DNA of 32,000 bases from Candidatus Saccharimonas sp. (GTDB taxonomy: Bacteria; Patescibacteriota; Saccharimonadia; Saccharimonadales; Saccharimonadaceae), in assembly GCA_015256915.3 (NCBI GenBank), contig CP076101.2, positions 600,001 through 632,000 of the forward strand, read 5' to 3'. The notes under the pieces are model-generated. The model searched no databases and was not told where the DNA came from. It saw nothing but the letters and a program-made list of their open reading frames with translations. Below, one piece after another: positions 1-32,000 of this stretch; within the stretch, counting starts at the first letter, position 1; the number at the start of each line of letters is the position of its first letter. Made by a program: the position numbers and the translations under genes.

Positions 1-855
1 ATCATGAATGACCATTTGCGGATATGGCAAAATAATATCGTTTTCATCAAAAGCTTTCTTGATTTCCCGCCGAAAAATTCCGGCAACATTCCATTGTTTT
101 CCAGCTTTTACCCTTCCTAAACACTTAATTTCCATCGAGGAATCCAAGAATTTATTAACTCTTACAAATACAATTGGCTCAATAATATCTTTTTTCAATT
201 CCGGATCTTCAAGCATTTTTAGCCCAACATTATTTATCACTTCTTCCAAAACATCAATATCCGTATCATAAGATACGCCAAACATTAAATTAACATTAGC
301 ATATTTAAAAGAAAGATTTGTCACCGCCTCGCTTGCACCATTTCGAATTGTGTGAACTTTTCCATCACCATCACGAACCTGAGTAATTCGTAAAGAAATA
401 TTCTCAACTTTCCCCGAAATTAGCCTTCCAGCAACCATAATTTCAATCGTATCTCCAACTCGATATTGGTTCTCACCTACAATGAAAAATCCCGCTAAAA
501 TATCACGAGTTGTTGTTTGAGCACCAAGACCAACCACGACACCAACTAAACCAGCACCTGTCATTAAAGATGCTACATTAACACCAATTGAACTAAGAAA
601 ATTTATAGCTGCAGTCATCCAAATAACGATATCAATTGTAGTTTTTGCAATTTTCGAAATTGTTTCATTTCTTTTTAAACGTTCTTCGGAGCGCTTTATT
701 TTTTTAGTTTTCTTACGAACACTGAAAGCGAAATCAATAATTTTGCGTGATAAAAAACTCGCAAAAACTGCAATAAGAATAATCGTGATTGGTTCGAACC
801 AGTCGTAATCTAAAAATCCTGTTATAAATTTTTCGAAACTCTTAAAAATATCCAT
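1..855 (-). CDS. mscS: MscS-family small-conductance mechanosensitive channel (3' end of the gene runs off the window start)
   Basis: Absent from the ORF track because there is no in-window stop. My minus-strand translation from the ATG at 855-853 reads MDIFKSFEKFITGFLDYDWFEPITIILIAVFASFL...MTGAGLVGVVVGLGAQTTTRDILAGFFIVGENQYRVGDTIEIMVAGRLISGKVENISLRITQVRDGDGKVHTIRNG... N-terminal TM helices are followed by the canonical MscS pore-helix/beta-domain signature. The frame is open for all 285 codons down to position 1. Confidence 0.85.
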   Translation of the reverse strand, partial: MDIFKSFEKFITGFLDYDWFEPITIILIAVFASFLSRKIIDFAFSVRKKTKKIKRSEERLKRNETISKIAKTTIDIVIWMTAAINFLSSIGVNVASLMTGAGLVGVVVGLGAQTTTRDILAGFFIVGENQYRVGDTIEIMVAGRLISGKVENISLRITQVRDGDGKVHTIRNGASEAVTNLSFKYANVNLMFGVSYDTDIDVLEEVINNVGLKMLEDPELKKDIIEPIVFVRVNKFLDSSMEIKCLGRVKAGKQWNVAGIFRREIKKAFDENDIILPYPQMVIHD

Positions 856-899
856 TACTAGTTATAATTAAAACATAAACACTTTATTTTTTCAATATT

Positions 900-1250
900 C
901 TAATACCACAAAGTTAGAATTGCATCATCAATTTTTCTTGCTTGTTCAATTTGATTATTTTCAGCATAGGAGTCTCGCTTCTTAACTAAAAAATCATGAA
1001 TATTTTTTTCATCGCCAGAAAGTTCCGATATCTGTTTCTTAATAGAAATCGAACGAGCTTCACCACCATCAGATTTAGTTATTTTTCCCATTAAAACCAA
1101 ATTATCTATATGCTTCGCTACCGTTGCAACAGATTTATAGCCCATGCCACGAGCAATTTCGCGATATGTTGGGCTATAACCAGATTCTTCAATAAAAACT
1201 TCTATAAAATTCAAAAGTTCAACTTGTTTTTTAGTCAAATTAATTGCCAT
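900..1250 (-). CDS. LexA N-terminal winged-HTH domain protein lacking the S24 peptidase/autocleavage domain
   Basis: MAINLTKKQVELLNFIEVFIEESGYSPTYREIARGMGYKSVATVAKHIDNLVLMGKI aligns with the LexA DNA-binding domain. The remaining ~50 aa are charged/helical, with no Ala-Gly site and no Ser/Lys dyad. I prefer the ATG at 1250 (SD-like AGGTGA 5 nt upstream) over the GTG at 1259 used by the ORF track. It overlaps the LCP gene stop by 11 nt. Confidence 0.75.
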   Translation of the reverse strand: MAINLTKKQVELLNFIEVFIEESGYSPTYREIARGMGYKSVATVAKHIDNLVLMGKITKSDGGEARSISIKKQISELSGDEKNIHDFLVKKRDSYAENNQIEQARKIDDAILTLWY

Positions 1251-2943
1251 TATCTTCACCTAACAAAATAATTATATCTGAATCTTCTCCTATTTTTGAT
1301 AATTCTGATGGTAATTTTTCAGCTTTGGTTGAATATTTAGATTCAAGATTTTTAATTGTTGCGGTTTTCGAATCTTCTTTTACATAATAAATTTTAGTTT
1401 TAGCATAGTCTCGCTTTGGTGCAGAATCAATATCTTGAATATTAAAGCCTTCTTTCTCAAGCTTTTTCTGTTCTTGAGCAGCTAATCCTGAATAATTCGT
1501 ACCATTTAAAATTTTAATTTTAGCGTTTTCTTTAATAACCTCACTACCAATTGTATTTTTTGAAATATAAGCTTGAATTTGGCTATAATTATAAGTTCCA
1601 GCTTTTGGTAAAACTGCACTAACCGAATTAATTAGCCCAGTTGTGAAATAATTTGCAGACTGATCATTTTCATTAACAAGTGGTAAAGAAGTTATAGATC
1701 CACCGTTAAAGTCTTGAGCAATTTCAGCCGCAGTCTTTAGTTCATCTCCGCTAAATGAGTGATGGATATTTTCACCCAAAGATGAAGCGAGCGAAAGTAA
1801 AGTTATTGGGTTAGTTTTTTGTTCATTTATCTTAGAAAACGCCGCTTTTAAAATCTTCTGCTGATTTCGTTCACGGTCAAAATTGCTTCCACTCAAACCA
1901 ACTCCGCCCGCTGAACCTCGAGCGCGCGAAAACGCCAATGCCGTTTCACCATCCATATGATAAGTTTCACCGCTCTTATAGTTAATTTTCGTAGCTACAT
2001 CATAAACTCTGTTAGAGCCATCATAAGCTTCGACTTTCACATCAATTCCGCCGACAGAATTAATAGCATCAATTAGGACTTTCCAATTGCCATGAACAAC
2101 ATACTGAATATCTAAACCTAAAATTTCTTTTGCTTTTTTAGCTAAAGAATCTTGACCAGCCTTCTCTGATTCTTCTTCACTTGAGCCACTATTTTTAGCA
2201 TCATAATAACTACAACCATAGGTTTCATTAAGTTTTCCGGCGGTTGTTCCAAGCCAGCTACGACAAGTATGTTTAACCCAAAGGTCTCGCGGTAACGAGA
2301 TAGTATAAATTTTCTTAGTTTCTTGATTGACAGACACGACCATTACAGAATCGGTCAAGTTCTCACCGTCCCAACCTTTTGGCGAAGTTCCAAAAAGTAA
2401 AATATTTGTACGACCATTAGAATCGGCCTTTAACTTCTTTTTCTCTCCAAAAACGGCGCCAATAACATTACCATTCGTTATTTTATACAAATCTTTGTAT
2501 GCTTTATATACAAAATATCCACCAACAATAATTAAAATCGATAAAATAATAGCAAAAATTCGCCCCGAAATTCGACGTCGCTTAAATTGCTCTAAAGAAA
2601 GAGCTTCTTTACCTTTTTTCTCGCGCTTCAAATTCTTTTTTTCGAGTTTTCGAAGAAGTTTTCGTTGTTTTTTCGAAGCTATTCGTTCTTTCCGTTCATT
2701 TTCCTGAACTTCTTCAATTTCTAAATTTTGTAAAGCAGACTCAATATCTTCATTTAAATTCTCTTCTCGATTTTTAGCTTTTTTCGAATGCTCATTTTCC
2801 GTTATTCTTGGTTGAACCTGAGTATTCGAAACTGGTTTTTTAGCTATTTTCTCATAACTGTTATCACGACTTAAAGAATCGACCCGCCGCCTTGGTGTGA
2901 ACCCATCTATTGATTGCTGATTTTTTTTCATAAGCTCTTTCAA
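1240..2943 (-). CDS. LytR-CpsA-Psr (LCP) family cell-wall glycopolymer ligase with C-terminal LytR_C-like domain
   Basis: Basic low-complexity N-terminal tail and one TM helix (IFAIILSILIIVGGYFVY). LCP core motifs: NILLFGTS...DSVMVVSVNQETKKIYTISLPRDLWV...ALAFSRAR. The C-terminal segment IKILNGTNYSGLAAQEQKKLEKEGFNI is typical of LytR_C. Confidence 0.9.
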   Translation of the reverse strand: MKELMKKNQQSIDGFTPRRRVDSLSRDNSYEKIAKKPVSNTQVQPRITENEHSKKAKNREENLNEDIESALQNLEIEEVQENERKERIASKKQRKLLRKLEKKNLKREKKGKEALSLEQFKRRRISGRIFAIILSILIIVGGYFVYKAYKDLYKITNGNVIGAVFGEKKKLKADSNGRTNILLFGTSPKGWDGENLTDSVMVVSVNQETKKIYTISLPRDLWVKHTCRSWLGTTAGKLNETYGCSYYDAKNSGSSEEESEKAGQDSLAKKAKEILGLDIQYVVHGNWKVLIDAINSVGGIDVKVEAYDGSNRVYDVATKINYKSGETYHMDGETALAFSRARGSAGGVGLSGSNFDRERNQQKILKAAFSKINEQKTNPITLLSLASSLGENIHHSFSGDELKTAAEIAQDFNGGSITSLPLVNENDQSANYFTTGLINSVSAVLPKAGTYNYSQIQAYISKNTIGSEVIKENAKIKILNGTNYSGLAAQEQKKLEKEGFNIQDIDSAPKRDYAKTKIYYVKEDSKTATIKNLESKYSTKAEKLPSELSKIGEDSDIIILLGEDNGN

Positions 2944-4330: not shown

Positions 4331-5456
4331 TAAATCCTTTCCTGATTTCTCTTTCGAAATTTTTCTTAAAATTATCTTTCGAAAAACTTTTAGCACTTTC
4401 TGAAACTTTTTTAGCATCAAAATTTAATTTTTCGAATTTTTTAATAGCGCTTAAGATTGACTCAACTGATTGCTCATCAAAAAATACACCATTTTTACCC
4501 TCTTGAATATAATCTTGTGAACCACCTTTATTGAATGCTAAAATTGGCGTTCCAGTAGCAAGAGCTTCGATCGGCGCAATTCCAAAAGGCTCCAAACTCG
4601 GAAAAATAAAACCTTTTGCTTCACCCACAATTTTCGAAAGCTCTTTTGGACTATTAACTCTTTGAATAAACTCAATATTTTGTGAGTTTTTTGCAAGATT
4701 TTTCAACTTTTGATGCTCAGCTCCGCCACCAACCAAAATCAACCTTTTACCATTTTTAGCAAAAGCTTTAACTGCTAAATCAAGTTTCTTCCAATTAACT
4801 TGGCGAGAAGTTGTAATATAATAATTTTTCTTTTTATCTTGAAACTTAAATTCTCTAATTTCTACTGGTGGAAAAACCACAGTTGATTCTCTTTTATAAT
4901 ACTTTGAAATCTCGTTTTTAGAATAATTTGAATTTGCGATCAAAAAATCTGGTTTTTGAGCAAGTTTAAAATCATTTTTTCGAAGTGGATTAACTAATAA
5001 TTTAAATAAAAATCGCACCAAAAAATTCAACCTACCAAAACCAGGATTTTCAATATAATCATTATACATTCCCCAATAATATTGAATTGGAGGGCCTTGT
5101 AAATAACTGATATGGAGCTGATTATTTGAAAGGTTCAAACCTTTACTTTCAGCGCAACAAATTGAAATAATAACATCAAAATCTTTTAGTTTTTTGCCTA
5201 AATTTCGAAAATATAGTATTCGCCCAACTGGTAATATTTTGCGCAATTTTGCCGGGAAAATATTCAACCAGCCCACCCGAACATCATTTTTCGAAAACCA
5301 ATCAACTTCTTTTTCTGAATATTGCGATGTAAAAATTGGTGCTTCAGGGAAAATCTCTGAAACCGTAGCAACAACCTTTTCAGCACCGCCATAAGTGGTG
5401 AGCCAGTCTGTCACAATCGCAACTTTCCTGCCATTTAACCATTTTGGATTTTGCAT
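4317..5456 (-). CDS. GT-B fold glycosyltransferase, family 4 (GT4)
   Basis: C-terminal GT4/GT1 signature FIFPSLEPFGIAPIEALATGTPILAFNKGGSQDYIQEGKNGVFF (E-x7-E). The ATG overlaps the stop of the upstream gene (TAATG at 5454-5458). Confidence 0.85.
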   Translation of the reverse strand: MQNPKWLNGRKVAIVTDWLTTYGGAEKVVATVSEIFPEAPIFTSQYSEKEVDWFSKNDVRVGWLNIFPAKLRKILPVGRILYFRNLGKKLKDFDVIISICCAESKGLNLSNNQLHISYLQGPPIQYYWGMYNDYIENPGFGRLNFLVRFLFKLLVNPLRKNDFKLAQKPDFLIANSNYSKNEISKYYKRESTVVFPPVEIREFKFQDKKKNYYITTSRQVNWKKLDLAVKAFAKNGKRLILVGGGAEHQKLKNLAKNSQNIEFIQRVNSPKELSKIVGEAKGFIFPSLEPFGIAPIEALATGTPILAFNKGGSQDYIQEGKNGVFFDEQSVESILSAIKKFEKLNFDAKKVSESAKSFSKDNFKKNFEREIRKGFNEKF

Positions 5457-6883
5457 TATTTTGCCCCTCTTCGAAAAATTACACTTGCAACAGTTTTAAA
5501 TAAAATTTGAATATCAAAAATAATTGACCAGTTTTGAACATAATAAACATCCAGTCTGCGGCGTTCTTCAAAAGAAATGTCACGCCTGCCTGAAACCTGA
5601 GCTAATCCGGTAACACCAGCTTTTACCGCCAAAATAATATTTTTTCTATTTGATTTGTTAATCTCTTGTGGAATTAAAGCCCGAGGACCAACAAGTGAAA
5701 TATCGCCACGAACAACATTAAAAAGCTGTGGCAATTCATCAATAGAAGTTGCACGGATAAATTTTCCAATTTTTGTAATTCTTGGGTCGTTATCAAGCTG
5801 ATCCCCATTTTTACGATATTCTTTGGAAAGTTCAGGTTTTCCCATTTTTTCGAAAGCCTGTTCGGGAGTTAAGCCATCAAATTCAGCCTTTTGTGAGCGA
5901 AATTTATAGATATAAAACTCCCGATTGAAGCGTGTTAGGCGAACTTGTCTAAAGAAAATTGAATCTTTAGGATTGGTAATCTTCATAATGATCGCCACAA
6001 TTAACATTATTGGTGAAACTAAAATTAAACCAAAGATTGCTAAAATTAGGTCCATTATACGCTTCCATATTCGACCCATACCAAATAATTTTGTAATTTT
6101 TACATCAATGATTGGAGTTCCGCCAATAACTTCAATTGTGTTAATCTGCGAAAGAAGCCTATCTTGTTGTGGTGCAAACATATACTCAAGGTGATTTTCG
6201 ATCGCATAGTTATAAATATCTTCACTCCTAAGTGTATCCGTTTGAATTAAGATATCAGGATTTGTTTTTAAAGCTGCATCTTTAAAACTCACAAAATGTC
6301 GAACAGGTGATTTCGTTGGTAAAAATTGACTTTTCGAAACCATTCCAATTACGTCATAACCAAAATCAATATTGTCATGAAAAAATTGAGCCAATTCTGT
6401 TGAACGAGAGTTTGAACCAATAATTAAAACTTTTTGGCGACCAAAACCACTTCGAATCAAAGCACGGCGAATAAAACGCACTATTTCGCGACCAAGAATC
6501 ATCATTAAGAAATTAATTGGAACAAAGAAGACCGCAATTATTCGAACTGGAAAAACTTCATCACCGGTGAAAAATTCATAAGAAATCATAGCCATAATAC
6601 TAATTATTGAAACAACTAAAGACCTACCATACTCTTTTGGTCGATAAAAAAATACCGAACGGTCATAAAGGCCAAAGAAATAGTTAATGGCCAGCCAAAG
6701 TGGTAGAAGCGAAACTGCCAAAAATACAAAATTCCAGATATTTGGCGCAAAATAATACGCGCGGGAATCAAGATGAGTTCTCGCAAAATATGCTAGCATA
6801 AATGAGCTCACAACCGCTAAGGTATCAGACAATACTAAATTGACTTTAAATATGGTTATTTTATCTTTTTTCATTACGGCCAT
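5456..6883 (-). CDS. Polyprenyl-phosphate glycosyl-1-phosphate transferase (WbaP/EpsB-type bacterial sugar transferase), initiating enzyme
   Basis: N-terminal TM bundle, a central Rossmann-like region (KVLIIGSNSRS) and the C-terminal Bac_transf signature PRITKIGKFIRATSIDELPQLFNVVRGDISLVGPRA...GLAQVSGR. Confidence 0.9.
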   Translation of the reverse strand: MAVMKKDKITIFKVNLVLSDTLAVVSSFMLAYFARTHLDSRAYYFAPNIWNFVFLAVSLLPLWLAINYFFGLYDRSVFFYRPKEYGRSLVVSIISIMAMISYEFFTGDEVFPVRIIAVFFVPINFLMMILGREIVRFIRRALIRSGFGRQKVLIIGSNSRSTELAQFFHDNIDFGYDVIGMVSKSQFLPTKSPVRHFVSFKDAALKTNPDILIQTDTLRSEDIYNYAIENHLEYMFAPQQDRLLSQINTIEVIGGTPIIDVKITKLFGMGRIWKRIMDLILAIFGLILVSPIMLIVAIIMKITNPKDSIFFRQVRLTRFNREFYIYKFRSQKAEFDGLTPEQAFEKMGKPELSKEYRKNGDQLDNDPRITKIGKFIRATSIDELPQLFNVVRGDISLVGPRALIPQEINKSNRKNIILAVKAGVTGLAQVSGRRDISFEERRRLDVYYVQNWSIIFDIQILFKTVASVIFRRGAK

Positions 6884-8402
6884 TATACATCTCCAATATA
6901 AAATTTAAACCAAACGCAGCGCCTACTATAAAAATAGGTAAATATATAAAAATATATCTTGCCCTACTTTCAAATAAAACCTGATATGCAACTACTAAAA
7001 GAGTGAAAAATAGTAAAACTACATGATAGTATTTAAACTTATTAGCTGATTTAAAGATAAAAATTGTAAATAAAGTAAGAATAGTTCCCCACATAATAGA
7101 AATAAAAACACTAAATAGCCGAAATTTATTACCATTCCAAGATAGAAAACGCCTAAATTTATGCACTATATTACCTTCAACTAAAAACTGTATGAAATTA
7201 TTTCTACTAGAACCCTCTCCCCACACTCCAAATGTTCCGTCGTTAAAGAAATTCGAAATCTTTAAAATAGCAAACTTAAGCCATCCAAAAGGAAAATTAT
7301 TCGTCAAACTATCAATAAATATATTTAAACTTACTTTCTCGCGCTCTCTTGCACCTTTAGCGGCAGTATCATCAGCGTATCTTGGGCAATATGATCCAGT
7401 ATTACATTCATTATAAGGTGGAAGCCCTCGCATGGATCCCATACCTAAATAATGTAAAAATCCAGTTCTTTTTTCACGTATTTGACTACTGGAATATTTC
7501 GCAAAACCGTTAGAAGATGTAATTAAAGTATTTAATACAAAAAAGGAAGAAATAACTCCGATTATAAATAAACCAAAATATTTTGCGATTATTTTTATAT
7601 TTCGACATCTATTTATAAAAAATAACGAAGATAGAAATATTGATATCATTAATATTAAAGTAGTAGGCTTTATAGCATACCCTAAGTAAGCAAAAATTCC
7701 TAATAATATAGTTAAGATTTTTAGTATGTAGCCATTGCCTTTTTTTGCATATAATTCAATAAGTAAAAGAATAAATAATTGAGAAGCAACAAAGAACAGA
7801 CCGACAGTATCCGTATAAAATACCGTAGAATATGGAGAAAAATTTATTATAGCGATAATAAATGTTGATATAATAGAAAATACAGATTTATTAAATTTAA
7901 CATAGATAATAGCCATTATAAATAATGAAGAAACAAGAATTAATATATTATTTATAAAAATTAGAAGTATATCTTTATCAATACCTACAAAATTAGCTAT
8001 ACGATATATTATTACTACAAAATAAGTTATAGTTATATTATTATCATATCTCAATAAATAATTATATTCCCAAGCTTTATCATCTGGATCGGTGTTACCA
8101 GTTTTTATATAATTATTAGCTATGGTTTGTATAGCGCCAGCATCCCAAGAGTGTTGTATTGAGGCGGTAGAAAAACCAGTTATCATTTGAGAGATTGAAG
8201 CAATAAAAATAAAGAATATAAGCAGAGTTTTCTTACTAAATTTTTTAGATAATAAAAAAACCGCCACAACAAACAAAATCAATACTATTGCTATAATCAA
8301 TACTTTATAAGGATCATATACACTAAATATATTTTTCGAAAGACCAAATATGCCAAATATTAAGCTGATAAGAGAAAATAATCTTAATGCCTTAATTACC
8401 AT
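6861..8402 (-). CDS. Large polytopic membrane protein, putative GT-C-type extracytoplasmic glycosyltransferase
   Basis: 513 aa with 12 or more hydrophobic helices, an acidic first-loop motif (HSWDAGAI...DPDD) and a large soluble loop (GMGSMRGLPPYNECNTGSYCPRYADD). Located in the glycan locus. The family assignment comes from architecture only. Very AT-rich codon usage. Confidence 0.45.
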   Translation of the reverse strand: MVIKALRLFSLISLIFGIFGLSKNIFSVYDPYKVLIIAIVLILFVVAVFLLSKKFSKKTLLIFFIFIASISQMITGFSTASIQHSWDAGAIQTIANNYIKTGNTDPDDKAWEYNYLLRYDNNITITYFVVIIYRIANFVGIDKDILLIFINNILILVSSLFIMAIIYVKFNKSVFSIISTFIIAIINFSPYSTVFYTDTVGLFFVASQLFILLLIELYAKKGNGYILKILTILLGIFAYLGYAIKPTTLILMISIFLSSLFFINRCRNIKIIAKYFGLFIIGVISSFFVLNTLITSSNGFAKYSSSQIREKRTGFLHYLGMGSMRGLPPYNECNTGSYCPRYADDTAAKGAREREKVSLNIFIDSLTNNFPFGWLKFAILKISNFFNDGTFGVWGEGSSRNNFIQFLVEGNIVHKFRRFLSWNGNKFRLFSVFISIMWGTILTLFTIFIFKSANKFKYYHVVLLFFTLLVVAYQVLFESRARYIFIYLPIFIVGAAFGLNFILEMYNGRNEKR

Positions 8403-8408
8403 GTCATC

Positions 8409-8417
8409 ATTATAACA
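8409..8417 (-). promoter_or_regulatory. Extended -10 promoter element TGTTATAAT, 6 nt upstream of ATG 8402 (leaderless transcript predicted)
   Basis: The minus strand reads ...ctgTGtTATAATgatgacATG. It heads the eight-gene minus-strand glycan/LCP/lexA-like operon. Confidence 0.5.
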
Positions 8418-8452
8418 CAGACTAATCCAATATTCAATTTCAACACGCTATA

Positions 8453-8461
8453 TGCTATAAT
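8453..8461 (+). promoter_or_regulatory. Extended -10 promoter element TGCTATAAT, 7 nt upstream of ATG 8469 (leaderless transcript predicted)
   Basis: taTGcTATAATaatatatATG, with no SD. Divergent partner of the 8409-8417 element. Confidence 0.5.
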
Positions 8462-8468
8462 AATATAT

Positions 8469-10610
8469 ATGAAAAATATAGAAGAGACTAAATTATCTAT
8501 AGTAGTAACAGCCCATAACGAAGGATTGTATCTATATAAAACAATATTATCTATAGAAAAATCTATAGAACTATTACCTGAAATAAGCTATGAAATAATT
8601 ATAAGTCTAGATAATCCAGATGATGAAACTATAAGAGTTGCTAAATTTTTAAGTAAGAAAAAACAAATCAAAATATTCGAATCATCTTTTGGAAACCCTG
8701 CAGATAATAGAAATTTCGCAATTTCGAAAGCAAAAGGATCAATATGCGCACTTATAGATGGCGATGATCTAGTATCTAAGAATTGGTTTAAAAATGGATT
8801 AGCAAAATTAAAAGAAAACGAAAATTCAATTATTAGGCCTCAAATACATGCGATGTTTGGCACACGCATGAATTCTCTATCAATATGGCAAATGCGAAAT
8901 TCTACAGAAAAAAATATAGACTCTATACAGATGTCATATTGGAATCCATGGACATTAACTTTAATAGCTAAAACAGAATTACTAAAAGATACGCCATTCA
9001 AACCCCAAAAAGGAGGTTTTGGATTCGAGGATTATCTATTTAACTGTGATATTATTTCTAAAAATATACCCATACTTATTGCGCCCGAAACTACTTTCTT
9101 CTATCGCCAGCGGCCTAACGTCTCGGTATCAACCCAACACAAAAATACAATTCTAGACTATTCAGACCTGTTCGATATAGAATATATTAAGTCAATCGAA
9201 ATGCCAATACCTCAAAAAAAGACAAGCTCTAGGATTAATATTAAAAAATATTATCGAGCACTGTATGATATTGCAAAAAAATCAGAGAATATAAGAAGAG
9301 CTATGTCACCAGTGGCATCAAGAATCCTAAGTAAAAAAAATATGAAAAAGCTCCCCACCTTCTTTATTGAAGACTGGAGAGAAATTAATGCCATAGAAAA
9401 TCAACTCTACCCCACAAAAGAAAAAATATCACAAGTAGAATTTCATCCACTAACTTTTAACCCATTAGACAATGAGTATGGAATCGTATATAAAAAGCTA
9501 TGCGAACAGATATCTGGAAATAATATAGATTATTTGTTCTTAGCACCTGCTATGAGCGGAAGGGGCGGAACAGAAAAGTTAATTTCTAACTATATCAGAG
9601 CTTTAAAAGAGATTCACCCTAAATGGAATATAGGAATATTATCAACACAGCCATTCAATAAGCCAACTATCGATTTTTTCAGTAATTTAGGAGTAGATCT
9701 AATAGATTTCGGAAGATTGACGAAAAAAATGGGAGATTACGAAAAAAATATAATATGGTCGCGTCTCCTAATTCAAGCAAAAATTAAAAATCTACACTTA
9801 ATAAATGATGAATACTGGTATAGATGGCTATCAGAACATAAGTCAGTAATTAAAGAAAAAAATATTAAATTAAACATATCTTTGTTCATGCGTGAATTTA
9901 CTAGCCAAAAAGATAGAATACTTTCATTCGCAGATCCTCAATTAGTAGAAGTATGGGATATAGTTAATTTAGTTTTCACAGATAACCAGGCGGTAATAGA
10001 TCAGGCCTTAGAAAATAATTTATTCGAAAAGTCTAAGTTTAGAGTTCACTATCAACCACAAACTATAGAAGAAGATAACAATTCGAATAATATAGAATAT
10101 GGTCAAAAAATTAAAATTCTATGGGCCAGCAGAATAGCACTCCAAAAAAGACCAGATATCCTTAAAAAAATATCTAAAGAGCTCTCGAAAGATTTCGAAA
10201 TAGATGCATACGGGGTCATTGAAAAGAAACAATATAGTAAAAATTACTTCAAGGACTCTCGAGTTAACTATATGGGAGGATTTAAAGGTATAAATTCTAT
10301 AGAAACAAGTAACTACGATATATATTTATATACCTCTCAAACAGATGGAGTTCCAAATATATTGTTAGAAGTAGCATCCAAAGGAATACCAATAGTATCC
10401 AGCAACATTGGCGGAATCAGCGAGTTTATAACCGATAAAGAGAGTGGATTATTAGTAGATATGGAAGATATAGATGGATATGTAAAAGCTATAGAATTCC
10501 TGAAAAACAATCCGACATATGCAGAAAAATTTACAGCAAATTTGCGAAAAAAGCTAAAAACGCAGCATTCGTGGGAAAGCTTTATAGATAAGATTTCTAA
10601 GGATATATAA
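8469..10610 (+). CDS. Bifunctional glycosyltransferase: N-terminal GT2 (GT-A) domain fused to C-terminal GT4 (GT-B) domain
   Basis: N-terminal LSIVVTAHNEG...SLDNPDDET...ALIDGDDLV (GT2 DxD). C-terminal YLYTSQTDGVPNILLEVASKGIPIVSSNIGGISEFITDKESGLLV (GT4 E-x7-E-like). Confidence 0.8.
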   Translation: MKNIEETKLSIVVTAHNEGLYLYKTILSIEKSIELLPEISYEIIISLDNPDDETIRVAKFLSKKKQIKIFESSFGNPADNRNFAISKAKGSICALIDGDDLVSKNWFKNGLAKLKENENSIIRPQIHAMFGTRMNSLSIWQMRNSTEKNIDSIQMSYWNPWTLTLIAKTELLKDTPFKPQKGGFGFEDYLFNCDIISKNIPILIAPETTFFYRQRPNVSVSTQHKNTILDYSDLFDIEYIKSIEMPIPQKKTSSRINIKKYYRALYDIAKKSENIRRAMSPVASRILSKKNMKKLPTFFIEDWREINAIENQLYPTKEKISQVEFHPLTFNPLDNEYGIVYKKLCEQISGNNIDYLFLAPAMSGRGGTEKLISNYIRALKEIHPKWNIGILSTQPFNKPTIDFFSNLGVDLIDFGRLTKKMGDYEKNIIWSRLLIQAKIKNLHLINDEYWYRWLSEHKSVIKEKNIKLNISLFMREFTSQKDRILSFADPQLVEVWDIVNLVFTDNQAVIDQALENNLFEKSKFRVHYQPQTIEEDNNSNNIEYGQKIKILWASRIALQKRPDILKKISKELSKDFEIDAYGVIEKKQYSKNYFKDSRVNYMGGFKGINSIETSNYDIYLYTSQTDGVPNILLEVASKGIPIVSSNIGGISEFITDKESGLLVDMEDIDGYVKAIEFLKNNPTYAEKFTANLRKKLKTQHSWESFIDKISKDI

Positions 10611-10618
10611 TTAAATAT

Positions 10619-20348: not shown

Positions 20349-20374
20349 AAAAGAGGCTTTCAAAAACCTCTTTT
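20349..20374 (-). terminator. Rho-independent terminator of lepA
   Basis: Minus strand AAAAGAGG-tttttgaaag-CCTCTTTT followed by TTTATTTT. The 5' arm overlaps the TAA stop. Confidence 0.65.
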
Positions 20375-21599
20375 AATCTCGTTTTAGCATTACAGTAAAA
20401 GCTTCGCTCGGAATTTCAACATTTCCAAATTTCTTCATTCGCTTTTTACCACGTTTTTGTTTAGCAAGCAGTTTTTTCTTTCGAGAAACATCGCCACCGT
20501 AAAGATAACCAGTCACGTCTTTTCGATAAGCCGAAATATTCTCGCGCGCGATAAACTTTCCGCCAATCGCCGCTTGAATCGCCACCTGGAAATTCTGTCG
20601 CGGAATAACTTCTTTCAATTTTGCAGTAATTTCACGACCCATTCGTACACTTTCCGAACGGTGACACATCACCGAAAGCGCATCAACCATTTCGCCCGCA
20701 ACATAAAAATCCACACGCACCAAATCTTCTACCAAATAATCCCAAAGTTCATAATTAAATGAACCATAACCAGATGTAACGCTTTTCAATTGATCATAAA
20801 AATCGGTCAAAAGGTTAGCGAGTGGTGCTTCGAAAGAGACCAAAACACGCTCATCAATATAGCTTAAATTCTTTTGCAAACCGCGTTTCGAAACAATCAG
20901 CTGGATTACAGCACCAACATAATCTTTTGGTACCACAATTTCACCTTTAATCCACGGCTCACGAATTTCAGAAATTTTTGTTTGATCAGGTAAATCAGCA
21001 GCACTTTTAATATCTAATTCTTCACCTGTTGTCAAAATAACATGATAGTCGGTTGAAGGATTAGTTACCACCAAATCTAAGTCGTATTCACGTTCCAAAC
21101 GCTCGCGAACAATATCCATATGAAGAAGACCAAGAAAGCCAATTCGCACGCCAAAACCTAAAACTGGTGAATTCTCTGGTTCGAATTGAAGTGCAGAATC
21201 ACTTAAACTTAATTTTTCAACCGCATCTTTCAAATCTTGATAATCTTCATTTGAAACCGGGAAAAACCCAGCATAAACGAACGGCTGAACGTTTTGATAA
21301 CCAGGTAGAGGCTCACTAGCAGGATTTTTCGAAAGAGTTACAGTATCACCAACTTTTGCCTCACGGGTAGTTTTTAAGTTAGTCACAATGTATCCAATCT
21401 CGCCCGCACTCATTTTATCGTATGGTGTCATTTTTGGCTGAAGCTTACCAATTTCTAGCGCCAAACCTTTTGAATCTGTCGCCATCATTTTAATTTCTTC
21501 ACCTTTTTTTAGCTCACCCGAAAAAATACGCACGTATAAAATTACGCCACGGTAATCATCATAATAACTATCAAAAATTAAAGCTTTTAGTGGTTTCAT
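20373..21599 (-). CDS. lepA: Elongation factor 4 (LepA), C-terminal 408 aa (domains II-V and LepA C-terminal domain), a separate ORF
   Basis: KPLKALIFDSYYDDYRGVILYVRIFSGELKKGEEI...GFLGLLHMDIVRERLEREYDLDLVVT...LLAKQKRGKKRMK. The ATG overlaps the stop of the G-domain ORF (TAATG), with AAGGAG 5 nt upstream. Confidence 0.93.
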   Translation of the reverse strand: MKPLKALIFDSYYDDYRGVILYVRIFSGELKKGEEIKMMATDSKGLALEIGKLQPKMTPYDKMSAGEIGYIVTNLKTTREAKVGDTVTLSKNPASEPLPGYQNVQPFVYAGFFPVSNEDYQDLKDAVEKLSLSDSALQFEPENSPVLGFGVRIGFLGLLHMDIVRERLEREYDLDLVVTNPSTDYHVILTTGEELDIKSAADLPDQTKISEIREPWIKGEIVVPKDYVGAVIQLIVSKRGLQKNLSYIDERVLVSFEAPLANLLTDFYDQLKSVTSGYGSFNYELWDYLVEDLVRVDFYVAGEMVDALSVMCHRSESVRMGREITAKLKEVIPRQNFQVAIQAAIGGKFIARENISAYRKDVTGYLYGGDVSRKKKLLAKQKRGKKRMKKFGNVEIPSEAFTVMLKRD

Positions 21600-22150
21600 T
21601 AAATCTCCTTTGGTGCAGGAATTTTCTCAATCACCGCATTTAAAACTTCTTCAACACCCATTCCTGTTTTGGCTGAAATATGTAAAATTTCACTTTCATC
21701 ACAACCTAAAAGATTAATAACTTCTTTCGAAACTCGCGGAATATCTGCTGCGGGTAAATCAATTTTATTCAAAACTGGAATAATTTTTAAATCTGCCGCC
21801 ATTGCAAGATAAACATTAGCCAAAGTTTGTGCTTGAATCCCTTGCGAAGCATCAACCACTAAAATTGCACCTTCACAAGCTTGAAGAGAACGCGAAACTT
21901 CATAGGAAAAGTCAACATGTCCAGGAGTGTCAATTAAATTCAATTCTATCCCCTGCCAATTCATTGTTACAGGCGCAAGTTTAATTGTAATTCCTTTTTC
22001 GCGCTCCAAATCCATCGAGTCTAAAAGCTGCGACTTCATATCACGTTTTTGAACAGTACCGGTAATTTCCATCATTCGGTCAGCTAAGGTCGACTTACCG
22101 TGATCAATATGAGCAATAATACAAAAATTTCTAATCTTTTCTAAATTCAT
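21599..22150 (-). CDS. lepA: Elongation factor 4 (LepA), N-terminal 183-aa GTPase domain, a separate ORF
   Basis: [20 protein letters not shown] (G1), DTPGHVDF (G3), NKIDL (G4), ending ...[11 protein letters not shown]. Confidence 0.93.
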
Positions 22151-23825: not shown

Positions 23826-25682
23826 TTAATCGTGAAGTTTTGCTTCCTTAGGCAATTTAGCATTTTTTAAAATTTCAGCAACTTCTTTTTCATCAAGGGT
23901 TTCTTTTTCGAGAAGTGCATCTGTTAATTCTTTGAGCGGTTTTTTATTCGCTTTAAGAATTGTGGCAGCACGCTCAACGGCCTCTTTAATTAATTTAGCA
24001 ATTTCTGCATCAATTTTTTCAGCGGTTTTTTCAGAATATGGTCGCTCGCGAGTCATTTTGTCAAAGAACATTCCAGAATTTTCTTCATGAAAAACTTGAT
24101 CAAGTAAATCTTCACCCATACCAAATTCAATTACCATATTTCGAGCAATATCAGTTGCATTTCGAAGGTCGCTTGATGCTCCGGTTGAAATTCCAGCCTC
24201 GCCATAAATCAACATTTCAGCCTGACGTCCACCCATTGCGCGCGCCAAGATATCTTTATATTCGAAAATATTTGTATAGCTTCGATCTTCTGGCGGTAAA
24301 AACCATGTTACACCACCAGTTCCACCACGCGGAATAATTGTAACCTTATGAACTGGGTCTGAATCTGGTAAAACATGGCCAACAACAGCATGGCCAGCTT
24401 CATGCCAAGCGGTAGTTTCACGTTCTAAATCACTCATAACTTTTGATTTTCGTTCTGGGCCAATCGCCACTTTTTCGAAAGCTTCAGTTAGATCTTCATT
24501 AGTAATTACTTCACGGTTATTTCGTGCTGCTAAAATAGCTGCTTCATTTGCAATGTTTGCAAGGTCAGCACCTGCAGAACCAGCAGTTTTCTTTGCTAAT
24601 GCGTTCAAATCAACAGATTCATCAACTTTTTTATTCTTGAAATGAACCTCTAAAATTGCTAAACGATCTTTTCTTTCAGGAAGAGAAATTTCTACACGGC
24701 GGTCAAATCGGCCAGGTCGAAGAAGGGCTGGGTCGAGTACATCAGCACGGTTAGTTGCAGCCAAAACAATAACACCAGTATCCTTTTCGAAACCATCCAT
24801 TTCAACCAAAATTTGGTTCAAGGTTTGTTCACGTTCATCATGGCCTCCACCCATTCCAGAGCCACGTTTTCTGCCGACCGCATCAATTTCATCAATAAAG
24901 ATGATCGCTGGAGCATTCTTTTTTGCTTTCGAAAACAAATCTCGAACACGTGAAGCACCAACGCCAACAAACATTTCCATAAATTCTGAACCTGAAATCG
25001 AGAAAAATGGAACTTTCGCCTCACCCGCAACAGCACGAGCTAACATTGTTTTACCAGTTCCTGGGTTTCCAACCATCAAAATACCACTTGGGATTTTTGC
25101 ACCCATTTTTTGGTATTTTTTAGGATCTTTCAAAAAATCAACAACTTCATATAAATCTTGTTTAGCGTTTTCATTTCCAGCAATATCTTCAAATTTAATC
25201 TTCTTTTTATCTTCACCGTAAAGTTTTGCTCGAGATTTGCCGAAATTCATTGCTTGCGAATTTTGACCAGTTGCCGAACGCATAATTAGCATAAAGAAAG
25301 CTACAATCGCAATAACTGGCACAATCATAACTGTTAAATTCCAAATTATTTCCGAAGAGTTATCAACTGGCATTACATCAACAGTAGTCTTTCCTTTTTC
25401 AAGCCCTTGTTCATAAATTGTTCCACTTTCTTTAACTGATTTTTCGCTAGCTCTCTTCTCGCCTTTTCTAGTAATCCTTACATCATTTCCCTGAATTTCT
25501 AGTTTCGAAATCTCACCTTTATTAGCGCGCAAGATCACATCCGAAATAGCAACTTCTTTTAATTTATTTGAAAAAATATTTTGGCTCACCCAAATTCCAC
25601 TAAAAATAGCTATAATCACCACCCAAAAAATAACATTCAGAGATAGCTTCTTAAAATTATTGTTTTTCTTATCTTTCATCAT
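23826..25682 (-). CDS. ftsH: ATP-dependent zinc metalloprotease FtsH
   Basis: Two N-terminal TM helices, AAA+ Walker A GNPGTGKT, Walker [13 protein letters not shown], and the zinc motif HEAGHA. Confidence 0.97.
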
Positions 25683-26802: not shown

Positions 26803-28077
26803 ATGAAAGAAGGTGGGAAAATTTCGAAAATTAAAGAGATAAAGTTCGAAAATTCAGTTAAATTTGCAGCCGAAAGTATTATTGAAAATGCCCTAAATCT
26901 GCACGCGACTGATGTTCATATTGAACCAAGAGAAGAATCAACTTTGGTCCGTTTTCGAATTAACGGCGTTTTAAAAACCGTTAATGAATTTTCGAAAGAT
27001 TTTTTACCAAAATTAGCTAAATATTTTAAGCATCTTGGCGGTTTAAATTTTAGTGAAAAAACTTTTCCACAATCCGCTACAATTCGACATGGAGAAGCTC
27101 GGATTCGAATTTCTACAACTCCAGTTTTTTTGGGTGAGAAAGTTACTTTAAGGTTAATTCGAGCCCGAAAAAGTGTTAGAAAACTTAATGAAGTTGGGCT
27201 TTGGGGCGAAAACTTACAGCAAATTCAACAAATTTTACGCCAACCGCGTGGAATTGTTTTTACAATTGGTGAAGGAAATAACACAACTAATTTCTCAATT
27301 TTAAATGAGTTAAATTCGAGCGAAAAAAATATTGTTACAATTGAAAAAAATATTGAAAAAACTATTTCAGGAATTAACCAGACTGAAATCAATCCAAGAA
27401 TTGGTTTAGATTATTTTGAAATGACTAAATCAGCTTTGAGTCAAAATCCTGATATTTTATACATTGATAACCTAAAAGATTCGAAAACTGCCGAGCTTAT
27501 TTTTGACGCTTCAATGCGAGGGAAATTCATCATCGCAAGCCTTTCAGTTCAAAAAATAAGTGAAATTATCCCATTTTTAAATTATCTTGGAATTGAACCG
27601 TTCTTAATTAGTGCAAATGTTCTAGGAATGATATCGCAAACCTTAATTCGTACCGTTTCGAAAAAGGCAATTTCAAAAACCAAAATCTCAAAAGAAGAAT
27701 CTTCGCTGATTTTACAGGAATTTAAAACTACGGGAGCAAAAATCCATCAATTAGAAAAAGATTTTCGCGATAAAGTTCACCCAAAAAATAAACTTTCAAC
27801 TTCTTCAAATGCTATTTTAGAATTACCAATTGTTCGAAAAAAAGAAAATTACGAATTAGCTTTCTCTGGAAATACTGCAATTTTTGAAGTTTTAAGTTTA
27901 ATTAACGGCGATATTTCAAAAGAAATTAAAAATTTAATTCAAATTAAGCCAACTTCAGTTGAAATTGAAGAAATTCTTTCAACAAATAATTTTAGAAATA
28001 TGAAATTAGATGGTTTAGCGAAGGTTCTACAAAACGAAACAATTCTACCAGAATTAATGCGGAAAACTGGATTTTAA
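26803..28077 (+). CDS. PilB/GspE-family (T2SSE) protein with all catalytic ATPase motifs degenerate (predicted pseudo-ATPase)
   Basis: Clear T2SSE core: ALNLHATDVHIEPREESTLVRFRINGVL...ARIRISTTPVFLGEKVTLRLI...GIEPFLISANVLGMISQTLIR. However, Walker A is GEGNNTT (no GxGK[ST]), the Asp box is TIEKNIE (normally TIEDPVE), Walker B is YIDNLKD (normally GEIRD), and the His box is RGKFIIASLS (normally TGHLVLSTLH). There is no tetra-Cys zinc motif and no N-terminal MshEN/GSPII_E_N domain. Confidence 0.75.
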   Translation: MKEGGKISKIKEIKFENSVKFAAESIIENALNLHATDVHIEPREESTLVRFRINGVLKTVNEFSKDFLPKLAKYFKHLGGLNFSEKTFPQSATIRHGEARIRISTTPVFLGEKVTLRLIRARKSVRKLNEVGLWGENLQQIQQILRQPRGIVFTIGEGNNTTNFSILNELNSSEKNIVTIEKNIEKTISGINQTEINPRIGLDYFEMTKSALSQNPDILYIDNLKDSKTAELIFDASMRGKFIIASLSVQKISEIIPFLNYLGIEPFLISANVLGMISQTLIRTVSKKAISKTKISKEESSLILQEFKTTGAKIHQLEKDFRDKVHPKNKLSTSSNAILELPIVRKKENYELAFSGNTAIFEVLSLINGDISKEIKNLIQIKPTSVEIEEILSTNNFRNMKLDGLAKVLQNETILPELMRKTGF

Positions 28078-29446: not shown

Positions 29447-30508
29447 TTATTCTTCAGTTTTTTCTTCGTTTGGAGTTTCTTCAATAAATTCTTCACCACG
29501 AATTTTTGCTCGAACCTTAGCATCAATTTCTGTCATTACATCTGGATTTTCAAGCAAATATCGTTTAGCGTTTTCACGACCTTGACCAATATTCTGATCA
29601 TTATATTTATAGAATGCGCCAGATTTTCCTAAAATTTCATGTTCAACCGCTAAATCTATAATATCTCCAGTTTTCGAAATTCCCTCGTTATACATAATGT
29701 CGAATTCGGCAACTCGGAACGGTGCTGCAATCTTGTTTTTCACAATTTTAACCTTTGTACGGTTTCCAATTACATCATCACCACTTTTAATTTGAGCTGT
29801 TCGGCGAATATCAGCACGAACTGAAGCATAGAATTTAAGCGCGTTACCACCAGTTGTGGTTTCAGGATTTCCAAACATCACACCAATTTTCATTCGAATT
29901 TGGTTGATGAAAATTACCGTAGCTTTTGATTTATTGATAATTCCAGTAAGTTTTCGAAGCGCTTGCGACATTAAACGAGCTTGAAGTCCCATGTGAGCGT
30001 CACCCATATCTCCATCAATTTCAGCCTGCGGAACAAGAGCTGCAACTGAGTCGACTACAATTAAATCAACTGCGTTCGAACGCACCAAAGTTTCAGTAAT
30101 TTCAAGCGCTTGCTCACCATTATCAGGCTGTGCAACAAGCAAGTTTTCAGTATCAACACCAAGTTTGCGTGCATAAGCTGGATCAAGTGCATGCTCAGCA
30201 TCAATAAACGCCGCTGTTCCACCTTGTTTTTGAATTTCAGCAATTGCATGAAGTGTTAAAGTAGTTTTTCCTGAACTTTCTGGTCCATAAATTTCAATAA
30301 TTCGCCCCTTAGGGTATCCACCGCCAAGCGCAATATCTAGACTTAAACATCCTGAAGGTAGAAGCTCAACATCAACTTTATGGTTTTCACCAAGCTTCAT
30401 AATTGAACCATCACCAAATTGTTTCGAAATTTGTGCAATCGCTAAATCTAGCGCTTGTTTTTTGCCATCTTCAGCCATTCCTACATCTGTTTTTTTTGCT
30501 TTAGCCAT
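29447..30508 (-). CDS. recA: Recombinase RecA
   Basis: [10 protein letters not shown], Walker [68 protein letters not shown] lies 8 nt upstream of the ATG. Confidence 0.98.
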
Positions 30509-30900: not shown

Positions 30901-30909
30901 TGATATAAT
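30901..30909 (+). promoter_or_regulatory. Extended -10 element TGATATAAT, 8 nt upstream of pilin ATG 30918
   Basis: attgTGaTATAATaaaaatatATG, with no SD. Confidence 0.5.
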
Positions 30910-30917
30910 AAAAATAT

Positions 30918-31307
30918 ATGAAGAAAAAATCTGGTTTTACAGTTATTGAAATTTGTGTTGTAATTATATTTTTAATCGTCGTTGGCGTAATTTTTACAAT
31001 ACAAAGATTTGAACTTCTCGCAGTTCAACGCGATCAAATTCGAAAACTTTCGATTAATGAAATTTATTATAATTTGGAAGAAGTTTATTACAAGAAAAAC
31101 GGCTATTACCCTGAAAAAATCAACGAAGATGTTGTTAAAGGCATTGAACCAAATCTCCTAACCGACCCTTCTGGAATTATAATTAATGAAGAAAAAAGTG
31201 AATATCACTACGAACCAACCAACTGTGAAAACGGTAAATGTAAAAAATTCACACTTCGAGCAAAATTAGAAAAAGAAGGTGATTTTATTAAAAAATCTCG
31301 AAATTAA
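30918..31307 (+). CDS. Type IV pilin / pseudopilin-like protein (class III signal peptide)
   Basis: MKKKSG|FTVIEICVVIIFLIVVGVIF has a prepilin peptidase site G/F with Glu at +5 and a hydrophobic alpha1-N helix. A C-terminal Cys pair (CENGKC) is present. Confidence 0.78.
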   Translation: MKKKSGFTVIEICVVIIFLIVVGVIFTIQRFELLAVQRDQIRKLSINEIYYNLEEVYYKKNGYYPEKINEDVVKGIEPNLLTDPSGIIINEEKSEYHYEPTNCENGKCKKFTLRAKLEKEGDFIKKSRN

Positions 31308-31312
31308 ATATT

Positions 31313-31347
31313 AAAAAACGGCTTAAAAGTTTTGAAAGCCGTTTTTT
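31313..31347. terminator. Bidirectional rho-independent terminator between convergent pilin and bPH-protein genes
   Basis: AAAAAACGGCTT-aaaagttttga-AAGCCGTTTTTT. 12-bp arms, with an A-tract on one side and a T-tract on the other. Confidence 0.7.
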
Positions 31348-31350
31348 TCA

Positions 31351-31989
31351 TTATTTTACACTCATTTTTACACCTTCTTCAAAAAGTTTATCAGAGAGCA
31401 TTTGATTTTCACGAGCAGCTTCAACAATGTCGCTTAAAAATTCTGCTTTTTTGTCTGGATTTGGTGAAAATGGAAAAGTATAAGTTGATTCATCGCCAAC
31501 AGTGCTCAATTTAACAGTTCCATAATCAAACAAATGCTGCAAAATCCCCTCTCGAGAATAAGAAATATCTTCGATCGATTCAAGGTTAATTACCTGCTTT
31601 TTTTGGCTCATAATCGTATTCGAAATCCATTGAATTGCGCGTTCGTTCGTAATCACGAATCGATTTGCTCGATATACAACATAATTAACATAAGTTAATA
31701 TAATTAAAAGTAGCGTAATTGAGCCAAAAATCAAAGAAATTTGTGGCTTAAAGTTTGCAGGAATTGGCAGCGGATTAGGCATAAAACAAATAATAATCCA
31801 CGCGCTTATTAGCAAAACACCAATAAATGCGCTAAAAATAATATTTAAAAGATAGCCGAGTGAGTGACGGCGCATCGAAAGAACCACATATTCATCTTCA
31901 TCAACCGTGATATCAGGATAAGTTTTCACGGATTGTTCGTGTCTTGCTTTAATTACGCGCGGATCTCCAGCAGGAACTTCTACTTGCAT
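31351..31989 (-). CDS. Membrane protein with bacterial PH domain (bPH_2 / YdbS-YdbT-like)
   Basis: Two TM helices (LLNIIFSAFIGVLLISAWIIICF, LIFGSITLLLIILTYVNYVVY) followed by FVITNERAIQW...INLESIEDISYSREGILQHLFDYGTVKLST. The true start may lie beyond the window end. Confidence 0.65.
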   Translation of the reverse strand: MQVEVPAGDPRVIKARHEQSVKTYPDITVDEDEYVVLSMRRHSLGYLLNIIFSAFIGVLLISAWIIICFMPNPLPIPANFKPQISLIFGSITLLLIILTYVNYVVYRANRFVITNERAIQWISNTIMSQKKQVINLESIEDISYSREGILQHLFDYGTVKLSTVGDESTYTFPFSPNPDKKAEFLSDIVEAARENQMLSDKLFEEGVKMSVK

Positions 31990-32000
31990 AACTGGCTGAA

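Follow-up and report, generated by a model that had tools for sequence, protein, structure and literature searches.

The hexamer TTCGAA, core of the unit T-TTCGAA-A, is close to certainly a highly iterated palindrome in a phylum new to such elements, the Saccharibacteria. It was counted in the window, the whole 32,000-base stretch of contig CP076101.2 from position 600,001 to 632,000. Exactly 99 copies were found, about one per 310 bp. Base composition (A 34.8%, T 32.7%, C 18.7%, G 13.9%) predicts 10.7 copies, giving an observed/expected ratio (O/E) of 9.2. The original prediction, made by eye from the letters, had put the count at about 99, the expectation at about 11 and the excess at about nine-fold; the exact figures agree, and its four example sites (793, 832, 26823 and 26845) are all genuine. 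Neither base and dinucleotide composition nor codon and dipeptide usage accounts for the excess.

Dinucleotide-preserving shuffles of the window contained 20.7 ± 4.7 copies and never more than 34. Markov models of orders 1, 2 and 3 predicted 21, 36 and 55 copies; the order-4 prediction reached 85 because that model already holds TTCGA and TCGAA, which are products of the motif itself. When all 256 xxCGxx hexamers were ranked, TTCGAA (99) was followed by a runner-up with 18. The octamer TTTCGAAA was observed 47 times, compared with 1.2 by composition (~39-fold excess) and 3.9 ± 1.9 in the dinucleotide-preserving shuffles. The base at -1 was T in 68 of 99 copies and that at +1 was A in 65, with the signal fading past ±2, which bears out the T-rich 5' and A-rich 3' surroundings and the octamer-like unit that had been described by eye.

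Codon usage was controlled for by permuting codons among synonymous positions, a procedure that preserves every protein sequence, dipeptide usage and codon usage. Shuffling within genes gave 34.5 ± 4.5 copies, shuffling across genes 31.2 ± 4.5, and 35.8 were expected with an independent gene caller. The corresponding z-scores were 12.7-15, and the highest shuffled count was 51. The null errs on the conservative side, since the motif has already raised the codon usage on which it draws. An O/E near 1 under such a shuffle had been named in the original prediction as the outcome that would tell against it; 31-36 copies were obtained against 99, and the prediction stood. Over-representation was seen gene by gene (O/E 4-19 in 31 of 32 genes).

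The window was extended by 9 kb on the left and 8.5 kb on the right, yielding ~50 kb, about 7% of the genome of its species (species A below). A further ~21 kb was examined from each of the related species C and D and lineage N. Outside annotated loci, genes were simple open reading frame (ORF) calls. Extrapolation gives roughly 2,000 copies per genome of 0.65-0.7 Mb.

All 99 window copies lie in coding sequence. Those at 342, 653, 793 and 832 count as coding because they are inside an MscS gene cut by the left window end; being incomplete, this gene was missed by the ORF list, so that the stretch looks intergenic. By frame, the copies divide into 21 TTC-GAA, 25 xTT-CGA-A and 53 xxT-TCG-AAx. 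The motif is thus not tied to one codon phase, as had been claimed, although the three phases are used unequally. Codon choice depended strongly on context. TCG made up 55% of serine codons in xxT-Ser-AAx and 12% in other contexts, CGA 71% of arginine codons in xTT-Arg-Axx and 26% elsewhere, and TTC 59% of phenylalanine codons ahead of GAA and 20% elsewhere; in FtsH, three of the four Phe-Glu pairs are encoded TTC-GAA, as the original prediction had it. Synonymous log-odds favouring the motif base, conditional on a match at the other five positions, were 1.7-2.6 at each of the six positions; for the flanks they were 2.1 at -1 and 1.1 at +1. The unit is therefore the full hexamer plus its T/A flanks, and the force on it is similar across frames. 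Among amino-acid contexts able to encode TTCGAA synonymously, 130 of 294 (~44%) do so.

Sequence conservation around the copies stops at ±1-2 bases, and the copies are therefore not a mobile repeat. A dispersed repeat of the repetitive extragenic palindrome or miniature inverted-repeat transposable element type was likewise rejected, the copies being coding and no unit longer than the core ±2 bases being found. TTCGAA resembles the tRNA T-loop, but as no tRNA or Rfam family is present in the window, this likeness has no bearing on the excess.

CpG is not depleted in the window (O/E 1.16), and most arginines are encoded by CGN codons despite the 32.5% guanine-plus-cytosine (GC) content. Some palindromes seemed to be avoided by composition (TGTACA 0, GTATAC 1, ACATGT 1 and TACGTA 1, with 10.7 expected each). 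They were unremarkable against the codon shuffles.

Distribution among strains and relatives

The gene set of the window (LCP, Wzy, glycosyltransferases, YidC, RnpA, LepA, MurJ, FtsH, TilS, PilB, RecX and RecA) is that of a Saccharibacterium. Its exact RecA was found in 180 blocks of public assemblies, most of them from human oral metagenomes and with contigs reaching 690 kb, and close RecA variants carry the NCBI name 'Candidatus Nanogingivalis sp.'. The source is a human-oral Saccharibacterium, Ca. Nanogingivalis, of TM7 group G6, with 32.5% GC. Group G6 has been reported to have the lowest GC content in the phylum, 32% (PMC7427843).

Relatives were collected by a YidC scan of JGI metagenomes and grouped by blastn into species A (the window's species), species C and D, and a sister lineage N. 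Species C (L114, L117, L118) has 81% nucleotide identity to A, and species D (L130) has 82% to A and 79% to C. Lineage N (L125, L124) stands at ~70% nucleotide identity, with RecA proteins 86-87% identical.

Strains of species A (96-98% identity) all had an O/E of 7.5-10.8, including in ~17 kb outside both window ends. In A, C and D, TTCGAA reached O/E values of 9.2, 8.6 and 7.3 and codon-shuffle z-scores of 12.7, 7.6 and 6.0. The motif was the most over-represented 6-, 7- and 8-mer in these species, the top octamer being TTTCGAAA. In lineage N (GC 32-33%) the O/E was 1.3 and the excess was absent, also by codon shuffles. Since this lineage is equally low in GC and lacks the signal, low GC is not the cause of the excess. 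The O/E did not exceed 2 in 22 GTDB Saccharibacteria species among the RecA matches listed (RecA 69-84% identical, GC 34-54%), which left out species A's own representative and its sister species. The remaining JGI relatives were also at or below 2; in all, ~40 other Saccharibacteria loci were motif-negative. The excess is confined to the genus Candidatus Nanogingivalis, in which three species at ~80% average nucleotide identity carry it. No earlier report of a TTCGAA excess in Saccharibacteria was found in the searchable literature, and the iterated motif appears to be previously unreported in this phylum.

Seemingly deep motif-positive lineages, suggested by YidC identities and a neighbour-joining tree, were rejected. 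They derived from frameshift-ridden BNJ* nanopore assemblies that blastn placed in the same three species. Eleven long BNJ* contigs (up to 698 kb) showed 9-47 blastn gaps per kb, and the callable coding fraction was 0.10-0.39 in the five put through the ORF caller. Owing to the frameshifts, protein identities computed with such contigs come out artefactually low. When IMG/VR was scanned for paired TTTCGAAA, chance matches only were returned, and no motif-dense viral contig was found there.

Other over-represented words were seen elsewhere in the phylum. ACCGGT occurred 19-27 times per 21 kb in a 45%-GC oral Saccharibacteria group (YidC ~40% identical), compared with 8-9 in codon shuffles (z = 3-7, ~3-fold). 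This group was represented by three loci, with seven more and one further locus alongside. TGATCA and GATATC showed a milder excess in the same group. Enrichment of particular palindromes in particular lineages may recur across the Saccharibacteria. In lineage N (L125, L124, L160) the asymmetric octamer AATCCAGA occurred 8-11 times per 21 kb on both strands, with ~0.8 expected. It was mostly read AAT-CCA-GAn (Asn-Pro-Glu/Asp), and three copies lay within a repeated peptide; the excess of AATCCAGA is probably a peptide plus codon effect.

Turnover of copies and possible causes of the excess

Polymorphism within species A was scored in two blocks, each an alignment of 11 sequences. TTCGAA was present in at least one strain at 146 sites and invariant at 89. 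Variants were nearly all TTTGAA or TTCAAA, that is, transitions of the central CpG. Synonymous motif CpGs were polymorphic for a transition in 32% (frame 3) and 45% (frame 1) of cases and other CpGs in 30-44%, so that the motif CpG shows neither hypermutability nor visible protection. Motif-creating changes were polymorphic at 16-17% of precursor sites, other CpG-creating changes at 13-16%. As both losses and precursor gains behave as at other CpGs, mutation input does not explain the excess. With polymorphism fractions taken as relative mutation inputs, a motif occupancy of 33% was predicted under neutrality for T-TCR-AA and of 28% for TTY-GAA; 68% and 56% were observed. Control pairs lay at their predictions (TCG/TCA elsewhere, 35% predicted and 31% observed; TTC/TTT elsewhere, 18% and 20%). 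Outer synonymous positions of the motif carried 6 polymorphisms against 12.7 expected, a weak deficit. Outgroup polarisation by C and D was unreliable because the branch is long relative to within-species diversity, and the McDonald-Kreitman table (P = 0.67) was not used.

Between species, four-fold degenerate sites were 52-54% identical for A and either C or D, and 40% identical for A and N. Within identical amino-acid contexts, TTCGAA was retained by species C in 30 of 41 (73%), compared with 40% for all other hexamers (P = 2e-5) and 25% for other xxCGxx hexamers (P = 2e-9). Species D retained it in 20 of 30 (67%), the same controls standing at 42% (P = 0.009) and 22% (P = 1e-6). Lineage N carried the motif in 3 of 16 such contexts. 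Retention was accompanied by turnover. Between A and C, 32 sites were common, 26 were found in A only and 17 in C only; between A and D the figures were 22, 27 and 18. At sites aligned in all three species, the motif was present in all at 16, in single species at 15, 9 and 14, and in two species at 11, 6 and 4. Lineage-specific presences (38) outnumbered lineage-specific absences (21), and individual copies turn over continuously. Loss mutations are thus as common as at any CpG yet are rarely fixed, and gains are still being fixed, which is the signature of a weak fixation bias. A weak bias of this kind, acting at the DNA level, keeps TTCGAA at about twice its mutational equilibrium; the pattern is not that of a mutation bias or of a decaying relic.

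The copies are spaced more evenly than chance, with modest significance. Over a 49.6 kb strain composite, the coefficient of variation of the spacing was 0.83, compared with 0.99 for random placement (P = 0.008); when sites were instead drawn at random from the compatible contexts, the values were 0.86 observed and 1.01 expected (P = 0.018). Gaps shorter than 21 bp numbered 1-2, with 6-10 expected. An apparent excess of spacings of 21-26 bp (7 against 3-4 expected, P = 0.03-0.08) was not significant given multiple looks. Density in the low-GC glycosyltransferase island was about half that of the rest of the window (O/E 5.9, flanks 9.5-11.5); the 9 copies counted there by eye were exact, as was the impression of sparseness. 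In ~3.5 kb of true intergenic DNA of species A, 4 copies were found and 1.0 was expected, a weaker excess resting on a small number. Amino-acid contexts compatible with the motif numbered 109 in A and 82 in the aligned orthologues of N (83 and 53 for frames 1 and 3), which suggests that the motif mildly affects protein sequence.

The source of the fixation bias could be selection, biased gene conversion or transmission drive. By analogy with known uptake systems, and with less than even confidence, we propose as the most probable reading that TTCGAA serves as a self-DNA tag in natural transformation, acting at uptake or through survival or recombination after uptake. A sequence-specific DNA transaction would give motif-bearing alleles a transmission advantage during DNA exchange between cells, either by preferential uptake or by better survival or recombination afterwards. 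The tag would be read by a DNA-binding protein or via a cognate TTCGAA methyltransferase. It would separate epibiont DNA (1 copy per 0.3 kb) from the DNA of the high-GC actinobacterial host (~1 per 13 kb expected at 68% GC). The tag is favoured because resident DNA is denser in copies than variable DNA, encoded peptides are inflated, close species are alike and the flanks are AT-rich. Natural transformation is known in Saccharibacteria, and com genes together with type IV pili are conserved across the phylum (PMC10187176). The DNA uptake sequences (DUS) of Neisseriaceae and uptake signal sequences (USS) of Pasteurellaceae were reported likewise to inflate encoded peptides (Findlay and Redfield, PMC2817400). 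It is possible, if on balance doubtful, that (T)TTCGAA(A), perhaps methylated, is a kin-recognition tag for natural transformation, by which the epibiont would single out DNA from its own genus, and the first self-DNA signal of the uptake or recombination type in the Candidate Phyla Radiation (CPR). Other Saccharibacteria clades may carry tags of their own, for example ACCGGT.

Several points weigh against a tag. The link to transformation is one of analogy, and competence was demonstrated in two other Saccharibacteria genera only, not in group G6 (PMC10187176). DUS and USS span 9-12 bases, are not palindromes and often occur in terminators, whereas TTCGAA is 6-8 bases long, palindromic and almost wholly coding. 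Its intergenic excess is just ~4-fold and comes from the 4 copies given above. No DNA methyltransferase, restriction enzyme, Vsr-type gene, pilin or DNA receptor was found in the ~50 kb examined. Methyltransferases were sought with regular expressions for N6/N4 and C5 catalytic motifs in all Saccharibacteria loci and in Pfam lists of flanking genes, and no convincing candidate emerged; a TylF/Methyltransf_24 gene in the left flank belongs to an O-methyltransferase family and is not a DNA methyltransferase. The population-genetic patterns fit uptake drive, biased gene conversion and ordinary chromosomal selection alike and cannot separate them, and the view is limited to ~7% of each genome.

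A rather unlikely alternative is that the motif is a functionless by-product of methylation-linked repair. An orphan or restriction-modification methyltransferase would act on TTCGAA, and repair, by Vsr-like T:G correction or methyl-directed mismatch repair, would turn near-matches into TTCGAA and so act as biased gene conversion. A repair origin of this kind was proposed for the cyanobacterial palindrome HIP1 by Elhai, and the alternative iterated palindromes of cyanobacteria co-occur with matching methyltransferases (PMC4390886). The almost exclusive variation to TTTGAA and TTCAAA by central CpG transitions is consistent with such repair, and in form the fixation bias matches biased gene conversion. 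Type II enzymes are, moreover, known to recognise TTCGAA, and methylation as TTCGA(m6)A was detected in one metagenomic genome (bioRxiv 10.64898/2026.06.24.734251). However, there is no 5-methylcytosine signature, since transitions at motif CpGs are no commoner than at other CpGs. TTTGAA (31) and TTCAAA (41) are not clearly depleted: 19 and 27 were expected by composition (O/E 1.5-1.65) and 38 and 59 by the order-1 model (O/E 0.7-0.8). The motif-less sister lineage often uses TCT or other codons at the same contexts, so that many gains needed changes other than T to C. Dcm/Vsr in E. coli yields only a modest motif excess, whereas the excess here is nine-fold, and no such genes were found in the ~50 kb examined. 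The CpG and deamination data argue against a simple origin of the Dcm/Vsr type; N6-adenine methylation is unaffected by this argument.

Less probable again is a chromosomal binding or structural site for a nucleoid-associated, segregation or replication-linked protein that needs close, even sites. A role of this kind has been suggested for HIP1 by Xu et al. (PMC5861425). It would suit the retention between species far above controls, the evener-than-random spacing with avoidance of very close pairs, and the stability of the trait in three species. Against it, single copies are freely polymorphic within species and 45-55% of sites differ between sister species, so that any benefit per site must be very small. 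The intergenic excess is weaker, not stronger, and no candidate binding protein was identified.

That the copies were left behind by an earlier mutational or mobile-element process and are now decaying neutrally, or that they are the product of pure context-dependent mutation bias, is highly improbable. Sorting by majority allele, which is approximate, did give 35 loss-type and 9 gain-type polymorphisms in species A. But density is equal in three species whose four-fold sites are so diverged, lineage-specific presences exceed absences, and control CpG hexamers are retained only a third as often. Gain polymorphism is not above that of other CpG-creating changes, and no conservation extends past ±1-2 bases. 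A translation-level artefact of favoured dipeptides, codon pairs or codon usage is hardly credible: although every window copy is coding and more than half fall in frame xxT-TCG-AAx, it is refuted by the protein- and codon-preserving shuffles, the bias is equally large in three frames, an excess persists in intergenic DNA, and sister-lineage proteins use other codons at identical contexts.

Sites and genes in the window

Coordinates of all copies and of the genes and pairs discussed are collected in Table 1. The smallest spacing between window copies is 21 bp.

Table 1. TTCGAA copies and motif-bearing features of the 32,000-base window (site lists give first bases)
Feature	Position	Strand	Remarks
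TTCGAA starts 1-25	342, 653, 793, 832, 1367, 2649, 2672, 2783, 2825, 3246, 3366, 3474, 3609, 3981, 4353, 4378, 4431, 4633, 4979, 5204, 5290, 5470, 5849, 6333, 6451		
TTCGAA starts 26-50	6541, 7252, 8335, 8676, 8723, 10023, 10082, 10194, 10630, 11380, 12393, 12604, 12934, 12993, 13076, 13974, 15034, 15237, 15258, 15737, 15989, 16043, 16379, 16723, 16881		
TTCGAA starts 51-75	17562, 17774, 17907, 18256, 18282, 18438, 18816, 18978, 19415, 20202, 20829, 20887, 21180, 21328, 21726, 22422, 22815, 22839, 23097, 23792, 24161, 24261, 24474, 24786, 24928		
TTCGAA starts 76-99	25504, 25951, 26209, 26304, 26566, 26668, 26823, 26845, 26954, 26991, 27104, 27480, 27657, 27833, 28248, 28675, 28993, 29673, 29893, 29953, 30075, 30423, 31039, 31619		
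MscS-family channel gene, 5' part	1-855	-	continues past left window end
TTCGAA pair in MscS gene	793-798 and 832-837		both in frame TTC-GAA
Close pair (example)	2649-2677		23 bp spacing
Further pairs spaced 21-26 bp	4353/4378, 15237/15258, 18256/18282, 22815/22839, 26823/26845		
Glycosyltransferase island	6861-11734		GC 28.6%, strain-variable; 9 copies, 1.85 per kb, O/E 5.9
FtsH gene	23826-25682	-	6 copies
PilB/T2SSE ATPase gene	26803-28077	+	densest gene: 8 copies, O/E 19; includes pair 26823/26845, 22 bp spacing
RecA gene	29447-30508	-	5 copies, O/E 15; query for strains and relatives

The original prediction had spoken of type IV pilus genes in the window. A PilB-type ATPase is indeed present, but it is the sole such gene there.

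The glycosyltransferase island contains two plus-strand genes amid a region of almost only minus-strand genes. The protein of an adjoining sugar-transferase gene (5456-6883) was found in exact form on one other contig only, whereas RecA and a LexA-like protein were found on hundreds; this rarity marks the island region as a strain-variable surface-glycan locus. The LexA-type protein (900-1250, minus strand; 116 aa) consists of the N-terminal winged-helix DNA-binding domain alone and was identical in 1,284 blocks of public assemblies, compared with 180 for RecA. LepA (EF4; 20373-22150, minus strand) is encoded by two ORFs, one of 183 aa for the G domain and one of 408 aa for the remainder. The two overlap in TAATG, with a perfect AAGGAG 5 nt upstream of the second ATG. 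Because every strain shows this split, as do sister species C and D, it is a conserved pair of genes rather than a fault of assembly. Between tilS and ftsH, an insertion of 876 bp is present in some strains (L083 14644-15519, L086 14644-15518), with two small ORFs (59 and 163 aa) and 2 copies of TTCGAA.

The genes dnaA and dnaN lie 5-8 kb beyond the right window end (L081 1-3257). Two AT-rich 500-bp spacers (GC 23-28%) in this region probably hold the replication origin. GC skew is negative across the entire window, and genes are mostly on the minus strand, which fits one replication arm.

Relation to known iterated motifs and significance

The highly iterated palindromes of cyanobacteria have been a puzzle for 30 years, and evidence linking them to transformation is only recent. 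HIP1 is now proposed as a transformation self-DNA tag, possibly read by methylation, and it raises uptake or recombination in Synechococcus. The description of TTCGAA as a HIP-like, frame-independent iterated palindrome acting at the DNA level, put forward in the original prediction, holds, and the motif is in addition specific to one genus, retained between species and spaced somewhat more evenly than chance.

The closest comparison is with HIP1 (GCGATCGC) and the alternative palindromes of cyanobacteria (Robinson 1995; Elhai 2015, PMC4390886; Xu, Lawrence and Durand 2018, PMC5861425). In both cases one short palindrome is singularly over-represented and is spread through coding sequence in all frames. 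Both are clade-level traits with related lineages that lack them, and in both sites are kept between genomes beyond controls, placement is non-random and fairly even, and the host group is naturally transformable. The two differ in host (Saccharibacteria of the CPR, with a genome of ~0.7 Mb), in breadth (genus-wide here, phylum-wide for HIP1), in sequence (an AT-rich 6-base core with T/A flanks as opposed to a GC-rich octamer) and in excess (9-fold, or ~39-fold for the octamer, compared with 15- to 300-fold). A cognate methyltransferase, usually an orphan enzyme in the HIP class, was not found here in ~50 kb. TTCGAA was not taken to be HIP1 proper, since its sequence is (T)TTCGAA(A) and not GCGATCGC and its host is a Saccharibacterium and not a cyanobacterium.

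The motif also resembles DUS and USS. The density of TTCGAA is similar or higher (1 per 0.3 kb compared with ~1 per kb). Like DUS and USS, it is common to close species, lies within genes in several frames, is depleted in recent or strain-variable DNA, mildly inflates encoded peptides, has AT-rich flanks and may be kept by a transmission-type bias as opposed to strong selection per site. Those sequences are, however, asymmetric, over-represented ~100-fold or more, and commonly arranged as inverted pairs in terminators; the motif does not have this form (asymmetric 9-12-mers, terminator pairs). Biased uptake and the receptor ComP are proven for DUS, whereas for TTCGAA an uptake role is proposed.

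With Dcm/Vsr and CCWGG in E. coli, the motif shares a palindrome of the methyltransferase type, main variants that are C-to-T products and possible biased correction. It differs in its far larger excess, in T-variants that are not clearly depleted and in a C that is not hypermutable, and no dcm- or vsr-like genes were found in ~50 kb. Restriction-site avoidance also concerns 6-base Type II palindromes, of which TTCGAA is one (the BstBI/AsuII site), but here the sign is opposite, an excess.

The strong distortion of codon choice, with TCG, CGA and TTC dependent on context, is relevant to codon-usage analysis and k-mer-based binning of these genomes. The motif provides an independent case of a highly iterated palindrome, in another phylum, with another motif, in a 0.7 Mb genome and with a motif-less sister of equal base composition. 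It thus offers a second system in which the cause of such palindromes can be sought by comparative genomics, supported by hundreds of strain assemblies and public long-read data. Saccharibacteria are naturally transformable, yet engineering them is difficult. Should uptake or recombination be raised by the motif or by its methylation, constructs that include it could help to open the uncultivated G6 organisms to genetics.

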